The notes beneath the pieces are model-generated. The model ran no database searches, was not told the origin of the DNA, and saw nothing but the letters and a program-made list of their open reading frames with translations. The translations under genes and the position numbers were made by a program. From assembly GCA_003635255.1 (NCBI GenBank), contig PYJC01000107.1:11367-75366 (forward strand): a stretch of DNA of 64,000 bases. Reading direction: 5' to 3'. The DNA comes from Candidatus Poribacteria bacterium. GTDB lineage: Bacteria > Poribacteria > WGA-4E > WGA-3G. The first letter of the stretch is position 1; each line of letters opens with the position of its first letter. Of the stretch, positions 19,543-32,271 are shown piece by piece.

Positions 19543-19567
19543 AAGGCGCGGCTTGAAACCGCGCCTT
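19543..19567. terminator. Hairpin between convergent pfp and hsdR (9-bp stem AAGGCGCGG / CCGCGCCTT, loop CTTGAAA)
   Basis: Perfect inverted repeat in the 51-nt convergent intergenic gap. It belongs to the hairpin family seen elsewhere in the window. Confidence 0.45.
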
Positions 19568-19569
19568 AC

Positions 19570-22500
19570 TTAATTTCTGCTATAAACACTCTTTCCCTCA
19601 CCGTAGTAAGCGTCGTAGATATGCTGATAAATTGCCTCGGATTTTTGATTAAACAGTTCGGGTGTGTAAGGTTGCGGCAGCCCTTTATCCAGTATATTTC
19701 CAACAGCAAGTCTGACTTGTGCACGTGTTTGTGTATGTTTCCGCCAATCCAAGCCTAAATTTTCTCGTTTGAGTGTCTCAAGCATTTCCCTCACGGCATC
19801 TTTCACTTCATCCTGCTCTGGAGCGGTTAAATGAAGTTCGGGTTGTGTTAGAAGATCAAACACCGCCAATTCTTCTTCAGAGAGGTCTTCAGTACGGGCG
19901 CGTTGGTCTTCTTCGTTGAGGTCATTAACGAAATCAAAAAGTTTCTCAAAATAATCCGCAACATCAATCGTCCCCGCGTTGTATTCTGCGATCATCTGCT
20001 CAAATTTCCCCTGATAATCCATACGGCTCTTGTTGAGACGGATCATTCCAGTCAATTTGGTGTTGATTGCGCTCCTGAGTTTCTCCGCTTCGACGCGTTT
20101 GTGCTGCGTATTGAATCGTTCGCTTAACTGTTCAAAATCAATCTGACTTAGATCTATCGGTTCTGTATCGTATCCGTCAGCCGGTATCTCAATGAGATAG
20201 CCTTCAGGTGCGATGGACCGATCCAGCACCGCCTCAACGTCTGTCATGACATCGGAGATGTCAGCGGGTGGTGTCAAATTTCTAATTTTCTGCGCGATGA
20301 TATGGATAAGTTGACAGGTTCTGGTAAATTCATGGGCATCCGGATCAGGTAGAATCGCTTTGTATAGTTTGGTGATATTCGTTGCGAGTTGTAGATAGCG
20401 TTTTTTGGTTTCATCGTTAATCAGGATGCGTTCCATTGCGTCATTGATTTGGGCGATGTTTTGGAATGCGTCGTCCGTTTGGGCATTATCTAAGTCAATA
20501 CCGAGACCTCGGCAGAATTCGGTGATTTCGGTGATCGCCGTTCGGAGTTTTTTAATCAGTTCTGACTTATCAGCAATCGGTTTCTGGTTTCCTTCCAGGT
20601 CCGCACCCGTAGCATAAATCGCCAGTGCTTTTTCAAGATCACGGAAAACGCCAATATAGTCAACAATTAAGCCGTTATTTTTATCACCGTAGACGCGGTT
20701 GGCTCTGGCAATGGTCTGCATCAAAGTGTGGTTTCGCTGCGGTTTGTCGAGGTAGATCGTGGAACAGGAAGGGACATCGAAACCTGTGATCCACATTGCA
20801 CAGACGAAGACAATTCGGAAAGGGTCATTGGGGTCTTTGAATTTGGTGTCTAAATCCTCTGTGTTCATACGGGCGCGGTGGGGTGTGATGTCAACACCTT
20901 TTTCGTTAAGGTCGGCAATCTCGTTTTGCCCGGGAGAAACTACAACTGCCATATCAGTTTCTTCCATGTAGCGGATCCTTTGTTTCAAGAAGACCCGTTC
21001 ACTGCCGTGTAGCGTGGTTAATTCGGATTTCAGACGTTCAATGTACTGATTCCAATATTTCTGCACCTTATCGAACATTTTGACAGCAGTGGCTTTGTCG
21101 ATTGAGATGACCATGGCTTTCCCTTGATAGCCTCTACCCGTAAAGTGTTTAACGATATCTTCGGCGACGGTTTCCAATCGCTCACCTCGTGTGATAAGAT
21201 GGTATTCTCTGGTGAATTCGTGTTCAAGCTTTGCCTCTTGTGCTTCGTCGAGTTCAGCATCCTCAAGGACCTGTTCGATGTCTTCGTTAAGGTCCTCATT
21301 TGTCAATTGTAGCGAAGGCACACGGTTTTCATAGTAGAGTGGCACGGTCGCGCGATCCACAATAGATTGGTTGAAGTCGTAGACACTCACATAATCGCCG
21401 AACACCGACTTTGTTTTTTCTTCGCCAACCATGAGCGGTGTACCCGTAAATGCGATGAAGGCGGCGTTGGGGAGCGCGGTACGCATGTTCAAGGCGAGTG
21501 TATCGTATTGACTGCGATGCGCTTCATCGGTGATGACGACAATGTCTGACCGCTTCGAGAGGACAGGATGCCGCTCACCACCTTGCGTCTGAAACTTGTG
21601 GATAAGCGTGAAGATATAGCGATGGTCCTCGCTGAGGAGTTGACGGAGATGTTTTATATCTTCGGCATGCACCTCCTGCTGCGTGAGAACACCGCTTGTG
21701 CTGGCGAAAGTCTTGTAGGTTTGGTTATCCAATTCCTTGCGATCGGTTACGACAACGAATGTCCATTTTCCCAGTAGTTTTCTAAGCACTTTCTGTGCAA
21801 AAAAGAGCATTGAGATGCTTTTCCCGCTGCCCTGTGTATGCCAAAAGACACCGAGTTTGCCGTGGTTATCTTCAATCCGTTTCAGGGATTTGATGGTGTT
21901 GTTGACACCGAGATATTGATGGTTCTTGGCGAGAATTTTGATTAATCCGCCTTGTGCTTCCATAAATAGGATGAAGTTCTCAACGATGTCGAGCAATCTT
22001 TCGGGTGTGCAAAGTGCATGCAGGATTGTCTCTAAGGAGGCTTGAGGGGGTTCGTCCTCACTGTGAACGCGTTTCCATTCGGCGAAGTGCTCCCAATCAG
22101 CAGTGAGACTTCCTACCTTGCTATCTGTGCCGTTAGAGAGAAGTATAAAGGCATTGTACCAAAAGAGGTGTGGGATGGTGTCTTTGTAGTCTCGGAGGTT
22201 ATCGTCATAAGCGGCTTTGAGGTGGACATCAATCCGTTTGAACTCCATCAGCACTAACGGGATTCCGTTGACGAAACATACTATATCTGGACGTTTTGTG
22301 TACATCTCACCGGTGATCCAGAATTGGGATGCGGCGAAGAAATCGTTGTTCTCTGGGGTGTCCCAATCGATGACTTGCAGCACTTCAACGGTTTCGTCTT
22401 CACTGTCTGGATCGCTAAGGGTGACCTTCACGCCGTCTTTTAGGAGGGTATAAATTTCTCGGTTGGCTTCGACGGGACTCATGACTGCGCGGGATTGGGT

Positions 22501-22734
22501 GAGTTGCTCGATTGCCTTGGCAATAGCATCATTGGTTACAGTGGGATTGATGCGTTTTAAAGCGGTCTCCAATCGGACAGTTAGGACGACTTCGGATTTG
22601 GTTTGTCTACCGAGTGGACTCTCTTCCGCTTGTTCAAATTCGTTTTGGCAGTTTAGCGTCTCCCATCCGATTTCTTTAAGTAGGTTGATGGCGGGTTGTT
22701 CTATGAGTTGGTCTTCACTATATGGGTTCTGCAT
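19570..22734 (-). CDS. hsdR: Type I restriction enzyme, R subunit
   Basis: 1054 aa. N-terminal PD-(D/E)XK nuclease strand (RPDIVCFVNGIPLVLMEFKR), SF2 motor (HTQGSGKS Walker A, VVITDEAHRSQ DEAH box) and a helical C-terminal domain. It is in an operon with hsdM and hsdS. Confidence 0.95.
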   Translation of the reverse strand: MQNPYSEDQLIEQPAINLLKEIGWETLNCQNEFEQAEESPLGRQTKSEVVLTVRLETALKRINPTVTNDAIAKAIEQLTQSRAVMSPVEANREIYTLLKDGVKVTLSDPDSEDETVEVLQVIDWDTPENNDFFAASQFWITGEMYTKRPDIVCFVNGIPLVLMEFKRIDVHLKAAYDDNLRDYKDTIPHLFWYNAFILLSNGTDSKVGSLTADWEHFAEWKRVHSEDEPPQASLETILHALCTPERLLDIVENFILFMEAQGGLIKILAKNHQYLGVNNTIKSLKRIEDNHGKLGVFWHTQGSGKSISMLFFAQKVLRKLLGKWTFVVVTDRKELDNQTYKTFASTSGVLTQQEVHAEDIKHLRQLLSEDHRYIFTLIHKFQTQGGERHPVLSKRSDIVVITDEAHRSQYDTLALNMRTALPNAAFIAFTGTPLMVGEEKTKSVFGDYVSVYDFNQSIVDRATVPLYYENRVPSLQLTNEDLNEDIEQVLEDAELDEAQEAKLEHEFTREYHLITRGERLETVAEDIVKHFTGRGYQGKAMVISIDKATAVKMFDKVQKYWNQYIERLKSELTTLHGSERVFLKQRIRYMEETDMAVVVSPGQNEIADLNEKGVDITPHRARMNTEDLDTKFKDPNDPFRIVFVCAMWITGFDVPSCSTIYLDKPQRNHTLMQTIARANRVYGDKNNGLIVDYIGVFRDLEKALAIYATGADLEGNQKPIADKSELIKKLRTAITEITEFCRGLGIDLDNAQTDDAFQNIAQINDAMERILINDETKKRYLQLATNITKLYKAILPDPDAHEFTRTCQLIHIIAQKIRNLTPPADISDVMTDVEAVLDRSIAPEGYLIEIPADGYDTEPIDLSQIDFEQLSERFNTQHKRVEAEKLRSAINTKLTGMIRLNKSRMDYQGKFEQMIAEYNAGTIDVADYFEKLFDFVNDLNEEDQRARTEDLSEEELAVFDLLTQPELHLTAPEQDEVKDAVREMLETLKRENLGLDWRKHTQTRAQVRLAVGNILDKGLPQPYTPELFNQKSEAIYQHIYDAYYGEGKSVYSRN

Positions 22735-22740
22735 GGCTAT

Positions 22741-23232
22741 CTACTGATCAGAATCAGGGATGTCAATTCCTACCTCTCGGATCTTTTCTAAGAAATTTGG
22801 TGGTTCAATGACTTCAACCCCAAATTCAAATAAGGCTCGCTTGAGTTCCCGATCATCTACGAGATCCTTGTCATACGACACCAAAAATTGGACGCGTCCT
22901 GAGATAGCACAATCAATGAATTTATCATCCTTGGGGTCGCGACATAATTCAACTGATGAGGTAACCTCAACAATGTTTGCTCGGGGCAAAAGGTTGATGA
23001 GACGCATGGCTGCTGTGCGTGTATACTGAAGCTCTCGCATAAGAACCGGACGTAATAAAACCTCCCGAACTTCATCAACAATAGCCTGCGATAGCACAAG
23101 AATAAATCGACCATCAAGCCAAAGTGAGATCAGATGATTAGCGAGGTTCTCCTTCTGAATCAATGAACGGACAAAGATGTTGGTGTCAAACGTTGCTCGG
23201 TAAACGCGCCATCGTTGTTCATGCTCGTTCAC
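22741..23232 (-). CDS. PIN-domain nuclease (PIN_3 / putative TA-toxin type)
   Basis: Acidic quartet contexts ATFDTNIF, VDEV, DPKDDKF and SYDKDL in 163 aa. It stops 6 nt before the hsdR ATG. Confidence 0.8.
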   Translation of the reverse strand: MNEHEQRWRVYRATFDTNIFVRSLIQKENLANHLISLWLDGRFILVLSQAIVDEVREVLLRPVLMRELQYTRTAAMRLINLLPRANIVEVTSSVELCRDPKDDKFIDCAISGRVQFLVSYDKDLVDDRELKRALFEFGVEVIEPPNFLEKIREVGIDIPDSDQ

Positions 23233-23761
23233 GCCTCACCTCTGCGAGTGCTTCCTCAAAATGACGCATCACTTCTTCCTCTGGAATATCGGCAAAGGCA
23301 TTGTGGAAGTGTGCTACGGTTCTATTCCATTCTTCCCGAAACCGTTTGCGCTCATTTTCAACTTCGGTGCGGAAACGTGAAACGATGCGCTGCCACTGTG
23401 TTGATATAGAGTCATCACATTCTTGAATATCCGGTAGGAAAAAGACTTTGTCAGAAAAACCGCAATCCTTGACGACATGCCTGAGTTGATTGATAAGAGA
23501 ATTTGATTCTTGCTGATGCTGTTGGTCAGTAGCAGTGACGAAAATAATATAGTCATCTTGCTTGAAATAATTCTCAATCGCCTTCCTTAGGCTGCTGCTT
23601 ATAGGGATGCCTTTTGTATGACACTTGCGAAGTGTACTTCTTCCGGCTGTTCGGATAGCGATATCCCCAAGCTGCCTGAATCTGAAAAATTCGTTTTCCA
23701 AAAATCCGACTGCTTTGGCATCACCGTCCGATTGCAAATTCCAAACTCTCACGCTTAGCAT
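23219..23761 (-). CDS. Hypothetical 180-aa protein, partner of the upstream ATPase (possible degenerate TOPRIM/DUF4276/RloB-like N-terminus; helical C-terminal tail)
   Basis: Its ATG overlaps the ATPase stop (ATGCTAA) and its 3' end overlaps the PIN start by 14 nt. I am not confident of any family assignment. Confidence 0.6.
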   Translation of the reverse strand: MLSVRVWNLQSDGDAKAVGFLENEFFRFRQLGDIAIRTAGRSTLRKCHTKGIPISSSLRKAIENYFKQDDYIIFVTATDQQHQQESNSLINQLRHVVKDCGFSDKVFFLPDIQECDDSISTQWQRIVSRFRTEVENERKRFREEWNRTVAHFHNAFADIPEEEVMRHFEEALAEVRRERA

Positions 23762-24981
23762 AACGGCTCCTCCATAAGGTCTTGTAGCAGTCCGCTGTCA
23801 AAGACGGCACTGCCGATTCCGAAATCAGCGATCCAACCAGCCAGTGCTTCACGCTTATCGCGGATATCCTCAAGGTTGAGTACCTCCGTGCCGAGTCCGA
23901 GGCGATTACGTAGGAGTAAAACGCCAAGTGAATCCGATAAACTCTTAGAACTAAAGGTATCAAGGAGTTGCGAGCTATGTGTCGTGATTATCACCTGCGT
24001 TCGTTCGGCAATACGCTCAAGCACGTATGCGATTTCTTTTAGCACGCCAGGGTGCAGATTCCGTTCCGGTTCTTCAATAGCGATGAGCGGCGGTAATTCG
24101 CCCTGGTGAAGCAAGATATAATATGCGATGAGACGCAATGTGCCTTCAGATGCTTTTTGCAAAGATATGGGATGCTTATATCCTTCTAAAAGACAAAGTT
24201 GATTTCTCCCATCAATTTCGTTGAAATCCATTTTAAAATTTATAGAAGCAGCAAGGGAATCACTTACACAGTCAAAACGCTTTCGATCGCTCTTGTACCA
24301 TGATGAGAGGACCTCGCGTAATTTCATATGAAACCAAATATTGGATTGCTCAGCCATCTGTTCAGAACCCAGCGATAACATCGAAATCTGTTCATTAGGA
24401 GGCGAAGATGGGTATAACTCTTCCGGATCTAATCCTGGTGGACGATCTCGCATATGTCCTGGTTGAAAATCATAAAATTCCCAAGCTTTAATAAAATCTT
24501 TTAAAATCTCACTGTTAACAGGGGAATTTTCTTCATGAGTCCCAAAAGGTTTTGAAGTGATTTTTTCTGAAGTATTTATCGTTTCGTTCTTGTCATCTTT
24601 AACCAACACTTCATATTTTTGAGCCAGAATTGATACTATTTTCAAATCGTTAACTGATAATTCTTCGTCAAACACAAAATTGTTCACATCAGTTTTAAGC
24701 ACTAGATCATAACTAATTCGGGATCTTTCCACCTCGGCCTGTAATTGAATAGTAATATGGTCTGATGCCCCTGACCAGAAACGTTCTCGGATGAAGTCAG
24801 CAGGTAGTGGAGTTTCACGCGTCATAGTCTTTAGAAAGCGTAAGCCCCTCAAGACATTTGATTTTCCGCTTGCGTTGGGACCAACAAGAACTGTCAAAGG
24901 TTTTAGTGGAAGTGTAACGTTCCGCAAACTCAGGAAATTCTTGATATGAATTTTCACTAAAAACGCTTTCCTTTCAGACAT
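23755..24981 (-). CDS. ABC-type (AAA_21/AAA_15-like) ATPase
   Basis: Walker A GPNASGKSN, signature-like SEGTLRL, Walker B LIAIEEPERNLHP, then ITTHS. There is a long, visibly A/T-rich insertion between the two nucleotide-binding lobes. Confidence 0.85.
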   Translation of the reverse strand: MSERKAFLVKIHIKNFLSLRNVTLPLKPLTVLVGPNASGKSNVLRGLRFLKTMTRETPLPADFIRERFWSGASDHITIQLQAEVERSRISYDLVLKTDVNNFVFDEELSVNDLKIVSILAQKYEVLVKDDKNETINTSEKITSKPFGTHEENSPVNSEILKDFIKAWEFYDFQPGHMRDRPPGLDPEELYPSSPPNEQISMLSLGSEQMAEQSNIWFHMKLREVLSSWYKSDRKRFDCVSDSLAASINFKMDFNEIDGRNQLCLLEGYKHPISLQKASEGTLRLIAYYILLHQGELPPLIAIEEPERNLHPGVLKEIAYVLERIAERTQVIITTHSSQLLDTFSSKSLSDSLGVLLLRNRLGLGTEVLNLEDIRDKREALAGWIADFGIGSAVFDSGLLQDLMEEPLC

Positions 24982-25025
24982 GGATATTACCTCTGCTCAA
25001 TAGCGTTGAATTGTAAACACCAATT

Positions 25026-25034
25026 ATTGTAGCA
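25026..25034 (-). promoter_or_regulatory. Possible extended -10 element (TGCTACAAT) upstream of the ATPase gene
   Basis: The minus strand reads ...AATGTTATGCTACAATAATTGG... in the 108-nt hsdS-ATPase gap. GAGGT lies 8 nt before the ATG at 24981. The -35 is weak. Confidence 0.3.
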
Positions 25035-25089
25035 TAACATTGGCTTTTATGCGAATGAAAATCCACGATTAGTGAACGACAGCATTCGG

Positions 25090-26295
25090 TTATATACTGT
25101 CAGTGTCAATATCAAGTTCGGATACGTCAATCTCGCCGGAGATGAGTTTTGGGAGGAGGAGGTCGCGGGTTTGTTGGAGGTTGGTATTTTTCTCTGAAAG
25201 GTTCTGGACTTTCCTAAACATAGGCGCAACTATAGACTCAAATTGACCAAGTATATCCGAACTGGGATTTGGGAGAAAATAATCATTAAAACATTCATTG
25301 ACAACACGCTGCCTTCCTGTTGATCCTGTCATACTCTTAATAGCATTCTCTCTGAAATCGCGGATTTGTGCCAAAAGATAAACAAAATATGGATTTAACG
25401 TTTTAGACCTGAGAACGATAAATTCAGTGGATCCAAAAGCGACCTTATCATCGTCGGGCAAAAATTGGACAAAGCCTGTCCTGCCGTTTTCGAGACATGG
25501 AGTAATGCGTGCAAATAACGTGTCGCCATTTTTGAATTTTGCCCCACTATTTCCTTTTCTTGCTTCTATTTCAGTGATTAACATCGAACGCTCTGTTGCT
25601 GACTTCATCGGAACGAACGGCTTTATAGTGTCGCGTGGGACAGAAGTCTTTGGGTTTATAAACATAGCTTCACTTGCTGGAACTACTTTCCACCCTCGCG
25701 GTATCGGTCCCAGTGGTGATTCCACCATTGGGACTTTCTTATGTCCGGGAAATCGGAAGTGGACGAACCATTCTTGGTAGAGGGTTTGCGCCATGTCTTC
25801 AAGGATTTTGATGCGGCGGGTGTTGTTTTCGATGAGGTCGTCGTAGGTAGAGAGGACAGCAGCGATTTTGTGTTGAATGGGCATCGGTGGGCAAAAGATT
25901 TTGGATGTTTTCAAATACTTAAAATGTCTCTGGTAGCCGAAGTGTTCTAAAGGCAAGTTTCGCAGAGCATAATAAAGATAACGGATGTCAAAATCTTTCG
26001 TAGGGCGTATGAGCTGCGTCCCGTCTGCTCCCACTGCAAAGGGAAAATCAACATATTTCAAAGTGCATGTGTGGTCACCAAATATAATGACAGGAAGTTG
26101 TCCATCATAATTCCGCTCTGTATCATTTATATAGCCAGCAATAAAATCCTGCCCTTGGTCTATAACAGGGATGTTGCCACTCGGTAAATACTCAGATTTT
26201 TTTATCTTATGCTTTTTCCTGAGAGTTTTAATGTAGTCCCCAATTAGAACTTCGCTGTTTTGTATAGAATTATTCATTATCAACCTTAGAATCAT
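25090..26295 (-). CDS. hsdS: Type I restriction-modification system, specificity subunit
   Basis: Two variable target-recognition halves are separated by the conserved spacer PPMPIQHKIAAVLSTYDDLIENNTRRIKILEDMAQTLYQEWFVHFRFPG. The distal conserved helix is NLSEKNTNLQQTRDLLLPKLISGEIDVSELDI. The start may be the internal MNNSIQ (26277). Confidence 0.9.
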   Translation of the reverse strand: MILRLIMNNSIQNSEVLIGDYIKTLRKKHKIKKSEYLPSGNIPVIDQGQDFIAGYINDTERNYDGQLPVIIFGDHTCTLKYVDFPFAVGADGTQLIRPTKDFDIRYLYYALRNLPLEHFGYQRHFKYLKTSKIFCPPMPIQHKIAAVLSTYDDLIENNTRRIKILEDMAQTLYQEWFVHFRFPGHKKVPMVESPLGPIPRGWKVVPASEAMFINPKTSVPRDTIKPFVPMKSATERSMLITEIEARKGNSGAKFKNGDTLFARITPCLENGRTGFVQFLPDDDKVAFGSTEFIVLRSKTLNPYFVYLLAQIRDFRENAIKSMTGSTGRQRVVNECFNDYFLPNPSSDILGQFESIVAPMFRKVQNLSEKNTNLQQTRDLLLPKLISGEIDVSELDIDTDSI

Positions 26296-26455
26296 CAGAT
26301 TGCGTCTGATCTGTCTCAGATTTTAGGTCTACCTGAATTTCCACTTCTTCGGTTTCATCCCAATAATCGGTGAGGTCATGTGTGTCCCAAAATTCGCCGA
26401 TTTCTTCTGGTGTTGCATCGGGAGGGGGCATTGGGTCTCGTTCTTTGTTTTTCAT
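26270..26455 (-). CDS. Small acidic protein with a BrnA/CopG-antitoxin-like N-terminal motif (no DNA-binding part)
   Basis: PEEIGEFWDTHDLTDYWDETEEV resembles the N-terminal segment of BrnA-type antitoxins. The remaining residues are acidic low complexity. It sits between hsdM and hsdS. Confidence 0.45.
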   Translation of the reverse strand: MKNKERDPMPPPDATPEEIGEFWDTHDLTDYWDETEEVEIQVDLKSETDQTQSDDSKVDNE

Positions 26456-26634: not shown

Positions 26635-28203
26635 TCATACTGTATCCTCCAGAATCTTTGCAACATTCTCAGCGATGCGTTCCTCGAGCTGATGGGCTTC
26701 GGCATTTAGGATGGCTAATTCCTCGTTGAGCTGCGTAAATCGTTCGGTGAAGTCGAAATCATCGGTTGTCTGTTCATCAACCCCGACATAGCGTCCGGGG
26801 TTCAGACTCCAACCTTGTGTCTCAATCTCGGTAATCGTAGCGACCTTGCAAAGTCCGGGAACATCAATGTATGCTGTATCGGGGAATTTTGAGGTGAGGA
26901 AATCTGCGCTGTCGTGTTGATTCTCAGGTGCTTCTCCGCGATAAAGTCTGACGATGTTTGCAAGGAATTCAAGTTGTAAGGGTGTGAATTCCCGATGTGC
27001 GCGGCTCACTTGCTGATAGAGATGGCGTGCGTCAATGAACAAGACTTTATCGCGTCTATCGCCGTTCCGTTTGGACTTATCGAAAAACCAAAGGGTACAG
27101 GGTAAAGTAACAGTATAAAAGAAATTTGAGGCGATGCTGACGATGACATCGACTGCCCCCGATTCAATAATTTGGCGGCGGATGTCGAGTTCAGAGGCGC
27201 GGGCATCAGCGGCGGAGTTCGCCATGACGAAACCTGCACGTCCAGATTCAGAGAGCGAAGTGTAAAACAGTTGAATCCAAAGGTAGTTGGCATTATCAAC
27301 GCGCGGCATACCGAATGGGAATCGGGGATCGTCTTTGATGCGTTCTCTATCTACGCGATCGACATTGAAGGGTGGATTTGCCATCACAAAATCAAACCTA
27401 CCGAAGCAGTTGTGTGGATCCTCATAGTAACTATTTGCCTGTTTGATATCGCCTTCAAGCGCATGGACTGCAAGGTTCATCTTACACAACCTGATCGTTT
27501 CGGCGACGCGTTCAACGCCGTAAATGCTGATGTCTCCAGGGTTACCATTTTTCTTGTGGTTGCTAATGAACGCTGCACTCTGGACGAACATGCCACCGGA
27601 GCCACACGCGGGATCAAGGATGCGCCCGTGAAAGGGTTGTATAATCTCAACGATGAGTTTGACGAGCGAAGTCGGCGTGAAGAATTCACCGCCGCGTTGC
27701 CCCTCACTCATGGCGAAATTGCCGAGGAAGTACTCATAAACCTTCCCGAAAGCATCCCCTTCAATGTCCATAGGGATCTGTTGCATGATACGGAGGAGTT
27801 CAAGGAGTGTGCTCTTTTCCAAACGATTGTACGTCTTCGGTAGGACACCATCAACCTGTGAATTTTCTGTTTCTATTGCCTTCATAGCGTCTGTGATGGC
27901 TTGTCCGATGTTTTCATTTTCTGGCAAATTCAGTAGGTATTGAAAACGTGAAGGCTCTGGCAGATAAAGTACACCGCGGGCTTGACATTCCATTCTCAGG
28001 TCGGGATGCCTGCGGCTGTTTGGATCGGAAACTTCGCTGCTGATTTCTTTTTCAGCCTGTGTAAACTTGTGATCGGCGTATCGTAAAAAGATAAGACCGA
28101 GGACAGGTGTTGAGTATTCGGATGCCTTAAGACGCGAATTGGCTCTGAGTTCATCGGCAGCACTCCAGAGCCTATTTTCGATGTCGGTGAGATTGGTGTT
28201 CAT
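26635..28203 (-). CDS. hsdM: Type I restriction-modification system, DNA methyltransferase subunit
   Basis: HsdM N-terminal domain ([36 protein letters not shown]), SAM motif [12 protein letters not shown], catalytic NPPF (VMANPPFNV). Confidence 0.95.
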
Positions 28204-31763: not shown

Positions 31764-32090
31764 CTACGTAACAAAAATTCGCTGGTAGTTGGTTGTTTTG
31801 TCTGAAGGCTTAATATGAATTTCAACCTTGCGGTTCAGCCGCTTCAGAATCATTAGCAACCGCTCCAGGGTGAAATTAAAATCCATTTCTTTCAGGCGGG
31901 ATACATCAGATCGGTCAAGTCCATAGCGTGCTTCTACTTTTGCTGGTGTTAACTTTTGTTCATCAAGAAGACGGTGGATTGCAAAAGCAAGGTCTACCCT
32001 TAACTGTTCGTATTCCGCTTCTTCCTCAGAGAAACCGATGTCCAAAAACACATTTCCAGAACTTTCCTCAATTTTGATCTCTTCACTCAT
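31764..32090 (-). CDS. XRE-family HTH protein (HigA-like antitoxin type)
   Basis: SSGNVFLDIGFSEEEAEYEQLRVDLAFAIHRLLDEQKLTPAKVEARYGLDRSDVSRLK... is the HTH_37-like pattern of antitoxins that follow RelE/HigB toxins. The start is ATG 32090 behind GGAGGCG. No toxin gene lies upstream. Confidence 0.75.
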   Translation of the reverse strand: MSEEIKIEESSGNVFLDIGFSEEEAEYEQLRVDLAFAIHRLLDEQKLTPAKVEARYGLDRSDVSRLKEMDFNFTLERLLMILKRLNRKVEIHIKPSDKTTNYQRIFVT

Positions 32091-32109
32091 TTTTCGCCTC
32101 CATCTGACA

Positions 32110-32271
32110 TTATACTGTATCTTCCAAAATCCTTGCAACATTTTCAGTGATACGCTCTTCGAGTTGATGTGCTTCAGCGTTCAAGACTACTAACTCTTCA
32201 TTGAGCTCTGTAAAACGTTCGACGAAATCAAAATCGTCAGCGGTTTGTTCGGCGACTCCTACATATCGTCC
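32110..32271 (-). pseudogene. hsdM: Remnant of the 3' end of a second hsdM gene
   Basis: The translation [53 protein letters not shown] matches the last 53 residues of the intact HsdM (26635..) at 45/53 positions by manual alignment. Nothing upstream of it is hsdM-like. Confidence 0.8.

Follow-up and report, generated by a model that had tools for sequence, protein, structure and literature searches.

In the PARIS defence system the TOPRIM effector AriB is held by the ATPase AriA until the ATP-dependent recognition of a trigger leads to its release (PMC11464382), and in HEC-03 an ABC ATPase and a VapC-like PIN protein defend together, both genes being needed (bioRxiv 10.1101/2024.01.29.577857). 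PrrC is almost exclusively embedded in type I restriction-modification (R-M) systems, for which a pattern of 'guilt-by-embedding' has been described (bioRxiv 10.1101/2024.01.29.577857), and Ocr and Stp act as triggers of both PARIS and PrrC (PMC11464382; bioRxiv 10.1101/2024.01.29.577857). Menshen (NsnA-NsnB-NsnC) combines a ParB-DUF262 sensor, NsnA, with an ATPase that carries a DUF3696 tail and with a catalytically dead PIN-like domain fused to a nuclease (PMC12065111). Here we analysed a stretch of 64,000 nucleotides (nt) of a Candidatus Poribacteria bacterium (GCA_003635255.1, contig PYJC01000107.1, positions 11,367-75,366), called the window in what follows, in which three genes located in a type I R-M operon, between its hsdS and hsdR genes, encode an ABC-type ATPase, a protein of 180 amino acids (aa) that we named p180, and a PIN_3 nuclease. 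Poribacteria are a phylum of sponge symbionts. From comparisons of the protein sequences, p180 is very probably a chimera of an N-terminal domain of the HEC-01B/DUF4276 type and a tail derived from an antitoxin, and the cassette appears to be a variant, not previously described, within the ABC-ATPase defence systems to which HEC-01, HEC-03, PARIS and PrrC belong.

All three genes are on the minus strand. The ATPase gene (23755-24981) encodes an ABC-type, HEC-01A-like protein of 408 aa (Pfam AAA_21, 1.1e-30; PADLOC HEC-01A, 2.6e-39), and its stop codon shares the letters ATGCTAA with the start of the p180 gene (23219-23761), an overlap of 7 nt at 23755-23761 that was read from the sequence. The p180 gene in turn overlaps the PIN_3 gene (22741-23232, 163 aa, GTG start; Pfam PIN_3, 1.5e-22; NCBIfam TIGR00305, 2.9e-19) by 14 nt (23219-23232), with GAGG located 6 nt upstream of the GTG, and only 6 nt (ATAGCC) separate the PIN gene from the ATG of hsdR. 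The open reading frames (ORFs) and junctions of this cassette are as a first-pass annotation of the window, made from the sequence, had described them, and the motifs quoted there were all found: GPNASGKSN, SEGTLRL, LIAIEEPERNLHP and ITTHS in the ATPase, FDTN, DEV, DPKDDKF and SYDKD in the PIN protein, and LQSDGDAKAVGFL and EEVMRHFEEALAEVRRERA in p180. Because identical junctions recur in dozens of Poribacteria genomes, we consider these ORFs to be real and not the product of chance.

The protein p180 itself has no significant match in Pfam, NCBIfam or PADLOC, and the PDB, searched with a sequence profile, contained no match below E 0.4. Its last ~42 residues (...W..T.A.FH.AFAD.PEEEV.R.FEEALAEVRRER) are its most conserved part, and residues 141-180 were modelled by AlphaFold2 (AF2) as a helix-loop-helix with a pLDDT score (predicted local distance difference test) of 77-85, the sole part of p180 to be modelled confidently. 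Matches to the tail only, found in the cluster-representative search, were stand-alone proteins of 78-84 aa. The ~81-aa family that they form comprises 284 clusters, has no Pfam domain, occurs in candidate division KSB1 and elsewhere, and is named at source 'hypothetical protein' or carries automatic labels, 'anti-sigma factor RsiW' for instance, that evidently have nothing to do with it. In the hhalign comparison, p180 residues 139-180 (KRFREEWNRTVAHFHNAFADIPEEEVMRHFEEALAEVRRERA; 23222-23347, minus strand), apparently an antitoxin-derived helical hairpin, align with residues 37-78 of the small protein at 98.6% (E 7e-16, 57% identity); the match covers the C-terminal half of the small protein, and the N-terminal half is absent from p180. 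Within the Poribacteria loci, the only stand-alone forms of the tail that we found were deletion remnants.

The gene neighbours of the small protein point to the origin of both the tail and the PIN gene. In three genomic contexts (L061, L065/66 and L067/68, the L numbers designating loci) 17 nt are shared by the 81-aa gene and a PIN_3 gene of 160-164 aa, the pairs being located at L061 3001-3718, L065 2001-2724 and L067 2001-2712, and in a fourth context, L060, the PIN has an internal deletion. The PIN of the stand-alone pair from KSB1 is 47% identical to the window PIN (E 4e-46). Moreover, the PIN GTG start, which in the window sits within the codons of the p180 tail, is found just after '...EVR' codons in the p180-PIN and stand-alone pairs alike. 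Taken together, the shared tail homology, the related PIN and the same junction suggest that tail and PIN were inherited together from a two-gene pair of the toxin-antitoxin type. Apparently, the ~81-aa proteins are antitoxins, so far unannotated as a family, of PIN_3/TIGR00305 toxins, and we propose that the p180 tail is a module that binds and neutralises PIN. That the helical tail ends where a PIN antitoxin would normally sit had been noticed in the first-pass annotation, and its homology to half of a small protein whose gene overlaps PIN_3 bears this out.

The other part of the chimera, residues 1-116 (23414-23761, minus strand), was identified with hhalign as a degenerate TOPRIM-like domain of the DUF4276/HEC-01B type. 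The cluster-representative search provided 21 full-length relatives of this N-domain (217-264 aa), to which residues 1-133 of p180 align at 99.9% (E 4.5e-31). Since 19 of the 21 relatives match HEC-01B (best 1.1e-8), the relationship to TOPRIM that had been suspected for this N-terminus now has transitive homology behind it; 18 of the 21 also match DUF4276 (best E 3.5e-6), and the secondary structure predicted for the N-domain has a repeating beta-alpha pattern, which fits TOPRIM. In the relatives the TOPRIM signature is almost invariant (E10 in 21/21, D77 in 21/21, D79 in 20/21), and 20 of them also keep the 'ELEAW' motif (E114/E116/A117/W118). Where 20-21 of the 21 relatives have E, D and E, the window p180 has Q10, A77 and D116. 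Among 170 p180s E10 is found in 64, E116 in 35 and W118 in 4, and the complete E-D-D-E set is kept in only 9 of 49 locus p180s. Residues R5, W7, S11 and Q68-I73 (QDDYII), which are not catalytic, are invariant. With the non-catalytic residues invariant and the catalytic ones relaxed, the N-domain is apparently maintained, but not as a nuclease, and we propose that it serves as an ATPase-docking module.

Support for this assignment also comes from the neighbourhood of the ATPase in other genomes. We compared 56 species-level Poribacteria loci onto which the window proteins were mapped, 50 of which have a full-length p180. In 7-8 of the loci, proteins of 240-246 aa take the place of p180 directly behind the ATPase, and their first ~116 residues are ~40% identical to p180. 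These paralogues match HEC-01B at 5e-7 and give sub-threshold matches to RloB and to DUF4276 (20-24 bits, 6e-5 to 9e-4, against a curated cut-off of 30.2 bits for PF14103), a family for which p180 gave no match. A tandem of such a motif-intact HEC-01B-like protein and a p180 without an ATPase of its own was thus seen in 7-8 species, two alternative partners side by side (paralogues at L013 9251-9991, L034 2325-3047, L023 9182-9922 and L035 9251-9991; also in L015, L022, L030 and L049).

The same N-domain was also found joined to other antitoxin modules. Paralogues of 182-183 aa in L044, L020 and L016 consist of this N-domain and a different tail (...LDWD.MTE..RE.FVDDLIHEDR), which shares 64-68% identity with the final 50 residues of a free-standing antitoxin of 100 aa that resembles Phd/RelB. 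In L044 the paralogue with the Phd-like tail is followed, with a 13-nt overlap, by a 136-aa PIN_3 gene that elsewhere follows the stand-alone antitoxin. In L045, L047 and L048 a p180 lacking the usual tail continues into a UPF0175 antitoxin domain (7e-11) and still lies behind the ATPase; this fusion is followed by an ORF of 163 aa, which in other loci also follows free-standing UPF0175 genes. These parallel fusions of one N-domain to three antitoxin modules argue for selection on the combination. The 163-aa ORF (L045 10732-11223, L029 10913-11404, L008 6894-7385, L026 9124-9615, L037 1742-2233) was always located behind a UPF0175 gene or domain, is 72-82% identical between species and has no Pfam match; it is a candidate for an uncharacterised toxin family.

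The PADLOC matches of the ATPase are headed by five HEC-01A models, the best being PDLC04178 (2.6e-39, residues 1-343 against positions 1-334 of a profile of 399), and further down include AriA (2e-32 and 9.5e-25), AbiLi (4.2e-26), MADS Mad3 and NsnB (2.7e-21). In the PDB it is related in sequence to the OLD, PtuA and retron Ec83 ATPases, and searches of Pfam, NCBIfam and PADLOC found no additional nuclease domain in its 408 aa. The Walker A motif (GPNASGKS, residues 34-41; 24859-24882, minus strand) was read from the translation. Across 41 homologues, residues 21-40 are 0.93 identical to the window sequence, whereas a hypervariable insert at residues ~41-260 (24202-24861, minus strand) shows an identity to the window of only 0.11-0.55, compared with 0.67-0.93 in the flanking lobes. 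Such variable inserts have been proposed to set trigger specificity in ABC-ATPase defence systems (HEC authors; bioRxiv 10.1101/2024.01.29.577857), and by analogy the insert is a candidate trigger-recognition region of a protein that we propose to be sensor and scaffold. The C-terminal ~45 residues (...DGWIADFGIGSA.FDS.LLQDLMEEP) hardly vary, irrespective of the partner that follows. In L005 (2-668) the ATPase is 48% identical up to about residue 327 and 95% identical beyond it, a change that suggests intragenic recombination.

The PIN protein has a single domain with its acidic catalytic residues intact, D16, E54, D99, D102, D121 and D123 being invariant in 23 of 23 sequences. Its clade, as restricted in distribution as the relatives of p180 and of comparable size, comprises 288 clusters, and Poribacteria sequences saturate the 120 homologues listed. 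Against PADLOC it matched no family at E <= 1, including HEC-03B. We propose that it is the RNase effector or toxin of the cassette.

How does this cassette compare with the described systems? HEC-01, in PADLOC the Hma-embedded candidate 01 with the ABC ATPase HEC-01A and the TOPRIM protein HEC-01B, is alike in that the best match of the cassette ATPase is HEC-01A, the p180 N-domain is homologous to HEC-01B/DUF4276, the same ATPase is in 7-8 sister loci followed by full-length paralogues of the HEC-01B-like kind, and both are embedded in a defence system. However, p180 matches no HEC-01B model at E <= 1, the TOPRIM metal-binding residues highlighted by the HEC-01 authors are lost or relaxed in it, the C-terminal half of HEC-01B is replaced by the antitoxin-derived hairpin, and a PIN_3 gene has been added as a third gene; the cassette fails both the two-gene composition and the TOPRIM-site features of HEC-01. 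HEC-03 shares with the cassette the ABC ATPase, the PIN-domain effector and the embedded defence context, but HEC-03 works without an intermediary, whereas the cassette has a chimeric adaptor carrying an antitoxin fragment. There is no HEC-03A among the 25 best PADLOC matches of the ATPase, and membership in HEC-03 was rejected on the missing HEC-03B match of the PIN.

PARIS likewise has an ABC ATPase scaffold holding a small effector, and the cassette ATPase matches AriA, although below the five HEC-01A models. Unlike PARIS, the cassette has no DUF4435/AriB, its TOPRIM-like domain is apparently inactive, its proposed effector is a separate PIN RNase, and it was not found on phages, plasmids or viral contigs. 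Membership in PARIS was rejected since neither p180 nor PIN matches AriB or DUF4435 in Pfam or PADLOC, and membership in AbiL since the AbiLi match of the ATPase is not accompanied by an AbiLii match of p180 or PIN; RloB gave no match for either protein, and the PrrC nuclease domain was also not found (Pfam, NCBIfam, PADLOC). The kinship to PARIS, RloAB and AbiL modules inferred in the first-pass annotation appears overstated, given an ATPase that matches HEC-01A better than AriA and the absence of an AriB, RloB or AbiLii partner. PrrC of EcoprrI, the classic design of a back-up to restriction, also combines an ABC-type ATPase with an RNase function between hsdS and hsdR, but PrrC is a single polypeptide that carries an anticodon-nuclease domain of its own and is kept masked by the R-M enzyme itself, while the cassette is made of three proteins, its putative mask is the antitoxin-derived tail, and many of its copies are outside hsd operons. 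Menshen has three genes, among them an ABC ATPase and a PIN-like effector domain, and the cassette ATPase matches NsnB; membership was rejected because the operon has no DUF262 or DUF3696 match and its PIN is a single-domain protein that keeps the acidic residues.

Type II, VapBC-like pairs of the PIN_3/TIGR00305 kind are those from which tail and PIN very probably descend, with the overlapping layout and the 47% identical PIN in common. In p180, however, a 138-residue stretch made of the TOPRIM-like domain and a helical linker stands where the antitoxin has its N-terminal half, so that p180 contains just one half of the antitoxin; a DNA-binding domain could not be detected, p180 is translationally coupled to the upstream ATPase, and the overlap with PIN is 14 nt in the window as opposed to 17 nt in the stand-alone pairs. 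The possibility had been raised that ATPase and p180 belong to an already named two-gene system and PIN to an independent toxin-antitoxin pair. Half of this was found, as ATPase and N-domain fall with HEC-01 and tail and PIN come from a toxin-antitoxin pair, but the two parts are covalently joined in p180 and therefore not simply independent. By analogy, the cassette would work most like PARIS or HEC-03, with PrrC as its positional analogue and HEC-01 as its nearest relative by membership. In the literature that could be searched here, and in Pfam and PADLOC, we found no description of a system consisting of an ATPase, a DUF4276-like::antitoxin chimera and a PIN protein, in agreement with the earlier remark that this three-gene composition had not been described.

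Of the readings considered, the likeliest, though an even call, is that the cassette is a tripartite abortive-infection module, with the ATPase as sensor, p180 as adaptor and antitoxin, and PIN as effector. In such a module, the inactivated TOPRIM-like domain would keep p180 docked on the ATPase, in analogy with AriA-AriB, and the antitoxin-derived hairpin would hold the PIN RNase inactive. A phage-derived trigger would be recognised through the variable insert of the ATPase, in an ATP-dependent manner, and this would release or unmask PIN, which would then cleave RNA, arrest the cell and abort the infection. In evolutionary terms, a type II toxin-antitoxin pair would have been plugged into an ABC-ATPase sensor, where it replaced the original TOPRIM effector. 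The embedding between hsdS and hsdR would provide co-expression and co-transfer with restriction without being required for function.

The distribution of the genes was then considered. Relatives of p180 number ~270 in a set of 5.8 billion proteins, and all of the named ones are Candidatus Poribacteria 'hypothetical protein' entries; an exhaustive hidden Markov model search of 1.84 billion cluster representatives returned only 100 clusters at E <= 1e-3. The p180 family and the three-gene cassette thus appear to be specific to Poribacteria. Collections of phages, plasmids and viral contigs contained zero p180 relatives, and a mobile-element origin of p180 was rejected on that ground. Among the 50 loci with a full-length p180, the ATPase adjoins p180 with an overlap of 1-4 nt (-4/-1) in 34 and adjoins a p180 paralogue that is followed by p180 in 7 further loci, PIN overlaps the end of p180 (-11/-8) in 23, and the complete ATPase-p180-PIN trio is present in 22. 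Nine of these trios lie directly before hsdR; in 5 others hsd genes occur at another place within the fetched 20 kb, and in 8 the fetched flanks contain none, so that 13 of the 22 are outside hsd operons. Even the most divergent p180s (35-41% identity, L050-L054), whose neighbours are GNAT genes, leucine-rich repeat (LRR) genes and ORFs without Pfam matches, still lie behind an ATPase, and in 3 of these 5 loci PIN directly overlaps the end of p180. The three genes are thus a recurrent unit whose overlaps are conserved, within hsd operons as well as elsewhere, and the lack of co-occurrence in other genomes that would have spoken against the first-pass annotation was not observed.

Other results weigh against a module of three coupled proteins. 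PIN is absent in 26 of the 50 loci, usually replaced by a ~104-aa UPF0175 gene before hsdR, and the ATPase is missing from 9, several of which have recognisable remnants (L006, L039, L043); the parts of the cassette are therefore separable. An intact p180 remains in 6 loci that have neither ATPase nor PIN, so that neutralising a PIN encoded in cis is not its only constraint. The mean pairwise identity of the tail is 0.76 in 22 PIN-less loci and 0.76 in 23 PIN loci (N-domain in the same comparison, 0.62 versus 0.56); with a tail equally conserved without PIN, masking PIN cannot be its whole story. The retention of catalytic residues in the N-domain does not correlate with the absence of PIN (3/23 versus 6/26, p = 0.47), on which we rejected the idea of either/or effectors, that is, of a TOPRIM-intact p180 where PIN is absent. 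The C-lobes of the ATPases do not cluster by partner type (0.77 within, 0.75 between), the PIN-binding half of the 81-aa protein may be either of its halves, and HEC-01 gave no defence in its only published test (bioRxiv 10.1101/2024.01.29.577857). In both AF2 runs (28 and 100 sequences) the N-domain had a pLDDT below 60; with these models unreliable, its assignment to TOPRIM comes from sequence profiles, and the contacts between ATPase, p180 and PIN are proposed from sequence and analogy. The earlier proposal that p180 both bridges to the ATPase and masks PIN is therefore favoured by the antitoxin origin of the tail and weakened by its equal conservation where PIN is absent. Either a PIN acting in trans, a second partner of the tail (ATPase or HsdR), or selection as an orphan antitoxin could account for that conservation.

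Many of these observations would be expected if the genes were only juxtaposed, with a decaying HEC-01-like pair beside a selfish type II toxin-antitoxin pair and its degraded TOPRIM gene joined to the antitoxin gene through a deletion. PIN and the tail would then form an addiction module stabilising the island, the ATPase would not control PIN, and the cassette would amount to a neutral fusion, an ordinary embedded HEC-01-like pair beside an ordinary toxin-antitoxin pair. The hsd region of Poribacteria is indeed a hotspot of many ordinary toxin-antitoxin modules, including Gp49/HTH_37 after hsdM, a Phd-like 100-aa protein with the 136-aa PIN_3, UPF0175 with the 163-aa ORF, DUF433 and ParE (examples at L001 6785-7451 and 9200-9900, L008 6233-6553 and L038 8546-8821), and fusions could therefore arise by deletion without functional coupling, which counts against a coupled module. 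The same reading is favoured by the frequent absence of PIN and ATPase, by the common deletion remnants of ATPase and p180 (L006, L039, L043, L055-L059), by the relaxation of catalytic positions in the N-domain, which a decaying gene would also show, by the conservation of the tail irrespective of PIN and by the HEC-01 result. However, p180 is an intact ORF in 50 of the 56 loci, with only C-terminal fragments in L055-L059, and its N-domain retains R5, W7, S11 and QDDYII, unlike a decaying domain. The ATPase-p180 junction and the C-terminal 45 residues of the ATPase are strongly conserved, the trio persists down to 35% p180 identity in at least 3 genomic contexts, and the union of the same N-domain with three antitoxin modules argues for selection. 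We therefore regard mere juxtaposition as unlikely, though a serious competitor to the tripartite module. Some of the deletion products fuse the first 50-110 residues of the ATPase to p180 or to the tail alone (P0292, 163 aa; L039/L043 9816-10540; L057 9850-10138), and the tail is the part that survives in them.

The persistence of p180 in the 6 loci without ATPase and PIN, and of a conserved tail independently of PIN, could also indicate that p180 is primarily an accessory factor of the type I R-M system, perhaps one that regulates HsdR or helps in its assembly, and that its association with ATPase and PIN is secondary. In most loci p180 is directly upstream of hsdR or separated from it by one small UPF0175 gene. 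Yet 12 of the 50 loci have p180 without any hsd gene in the fetched flanks, both halves of p180 are homologous to modules that are partnered otherwise (with ATPases and as PIN antitoxins), and where the ATPase is missing, remnants often show a recent deletion. This role for p180 seems to us very improbable.

Restriction enters in a different way in the proposal of the first-pass annotation that the cassette is a back-up immunity fired by phage anti-restriction proteins of the Ocr, ArdA or Stp type, as PARIS and PrrC are fired by Ocr and Stp. Such a back-up would stay silent as long as restriction is effective and would respond to proteins that disable EcoKI-like enzymes or mimic their targets. 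In 33 of the 50 loci hsdR follows the cassette, the hsdS-hsdR position being the same as that of prrC, which is almost exclusively embedded in type I R-M systems, and the ATPase matches AriA. But with 13 of 22 trios unembedded, 8 of them without an hsd gene in the fetched flanks, with GNAT genes, LRR genes and Pfam-less ORFs as the neighbours of the most divergent cassettes (L050-L054), and with hsdR fragmented in several genomes where cassette genes remain (L009, L016, L026, L048), the link to restriction is, on these gene neighbourhoods, not obligate. The operon has no AriB/DUF4435, RloB or PrrC nuclease domain, and nothing in the sequence identifies a trigger. The proposal was a pure analogy, which we could not uphold and consider improbable, although less so than an accessory role for p180. 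An hsdR that is split or internally deleted was seen in L002, L009, L016, L026, L048 and L055, next to cassette genes that are intact ORFs; hsdR seems to decay faster than its passenger genes.

Returning to the tripartite module, its most unusual and informative feature is the pseudo-nuclease adaptor with a grafted antitoxin peptide. Perhaps ABC-ATPase sensors can exchange one effector for another through the capture of type II toxin-antitoxin pairs, the neutralising peptide of the antitoxin being grafted onto an inactivated TOPRIM domain that becomes a pure adaptor; this is a conceivable generalisation, and we hold it only tentatively. If it is true, Poribacteria would show three parallel captures on one scaffold, namely PIN163 with the EEALAEVRRER tail, PIN136 with the Phd-like tail and the 163-aa toxin with UPF0175, and the cassette would be the first sensor-adaptor-toxin architecture in which a pseudo-nuclease tethers the toxin of a toxin-antitoxin pair to an immune ATPase. 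Such a model would offer an evolutionary route by which immune sensors gain effectors from the large pool of toxin-antitoxin systems, and would explain how these modules become trigger-responsive defence effectors. Under it, closely related genomes would contain a natural set of intermediates (ATPase with full-length TOPRIM protein, chimera with PIN, UPF0175 chimera with candidate toxin, stand-alone antitoxin with PIN), and for that reason the ATPase-adaptor and adaptor-toxin interfaces would be directly testable. Two new families were also defined, the apparent ~78-84-aa antitoxins of PIN_3 toxins and the candidate 163-aa toxin behind UPF0175.

The remaining genes of the operon are also on the minus strand, in the order hsdM, a 61-aa ORF, hsdS, ATPase, p180, PIN and hsdR. 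The first gene, hsdM (26635-28203), encodes the methyltransferase of 522 aa (Pfam N6_Mtase, 5.8e-82; HsdM_N, 7.4e-24), hsdS (25090-26295) the specificity subunit of 401 aa (Pfam Methylase_S, 2.5e-15, in two stretches) and hsdR (19570-22734) the restriction subunit of 1054 aa (Pfam HSDR_N, 1.8e-48; SWI2_SNF2, 8.2e-75; T1RH-like_C, 3.7e-46). The 61-aa ORF (26270-26455), a fourth non-hsd ORF that the first-pass annotation did not mention, overlaps the start of hsdS by 26 nt and has a weak Pfam match to CopG_antitoxin (1.3e-4) that is under the curated cut-off; conserved in over 25 hsd loci of Poribacteria with identities of 63-93%, it is probably a genuine small gene of the operon.

A promoter-like site found by a consensus scan in the 108-nt gap between hsdS and the ATPase gene (TTCGCA-18-TACAAT with TG; 25026-25055, minus strand) may be an internal promoter of the cassette, such sites being no more frequent than expected from shuffled sequence. 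Between the convergent hsdR and PFK genes, a GC-rich, terminator-like hairpin (19543-19567; 9 pairs, 7 of them G-C) is the likely end of the operon, and the terminator scan found no convincing terminator on the minus strand from hsdS to the end of hsdR. Because of this and of the tiny gaps, it is plausible that the cassette and hsdR are on one transcript, as the first-pass annotation had stated outright; the gaps and the missing terminator agree with that statement, and its firmness does not survive the promoter and terminator scans, neither of which rose above shuffled expectation in the region.

The G+C content is 0.39-0.44 over hsdS and the ATPase gene (window 24000-25500) as compared with ~0.48-0.52 in the flanks, in keeping with the idea that these genes are the operon's exchangeable parts. 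Further upstream, an ORF of 125 aa (window 31764-32141, minus strand) adjoins SDR genes, at the position that in L001 is occupied by the HTH_37 antitoxin gene beside Gp49.

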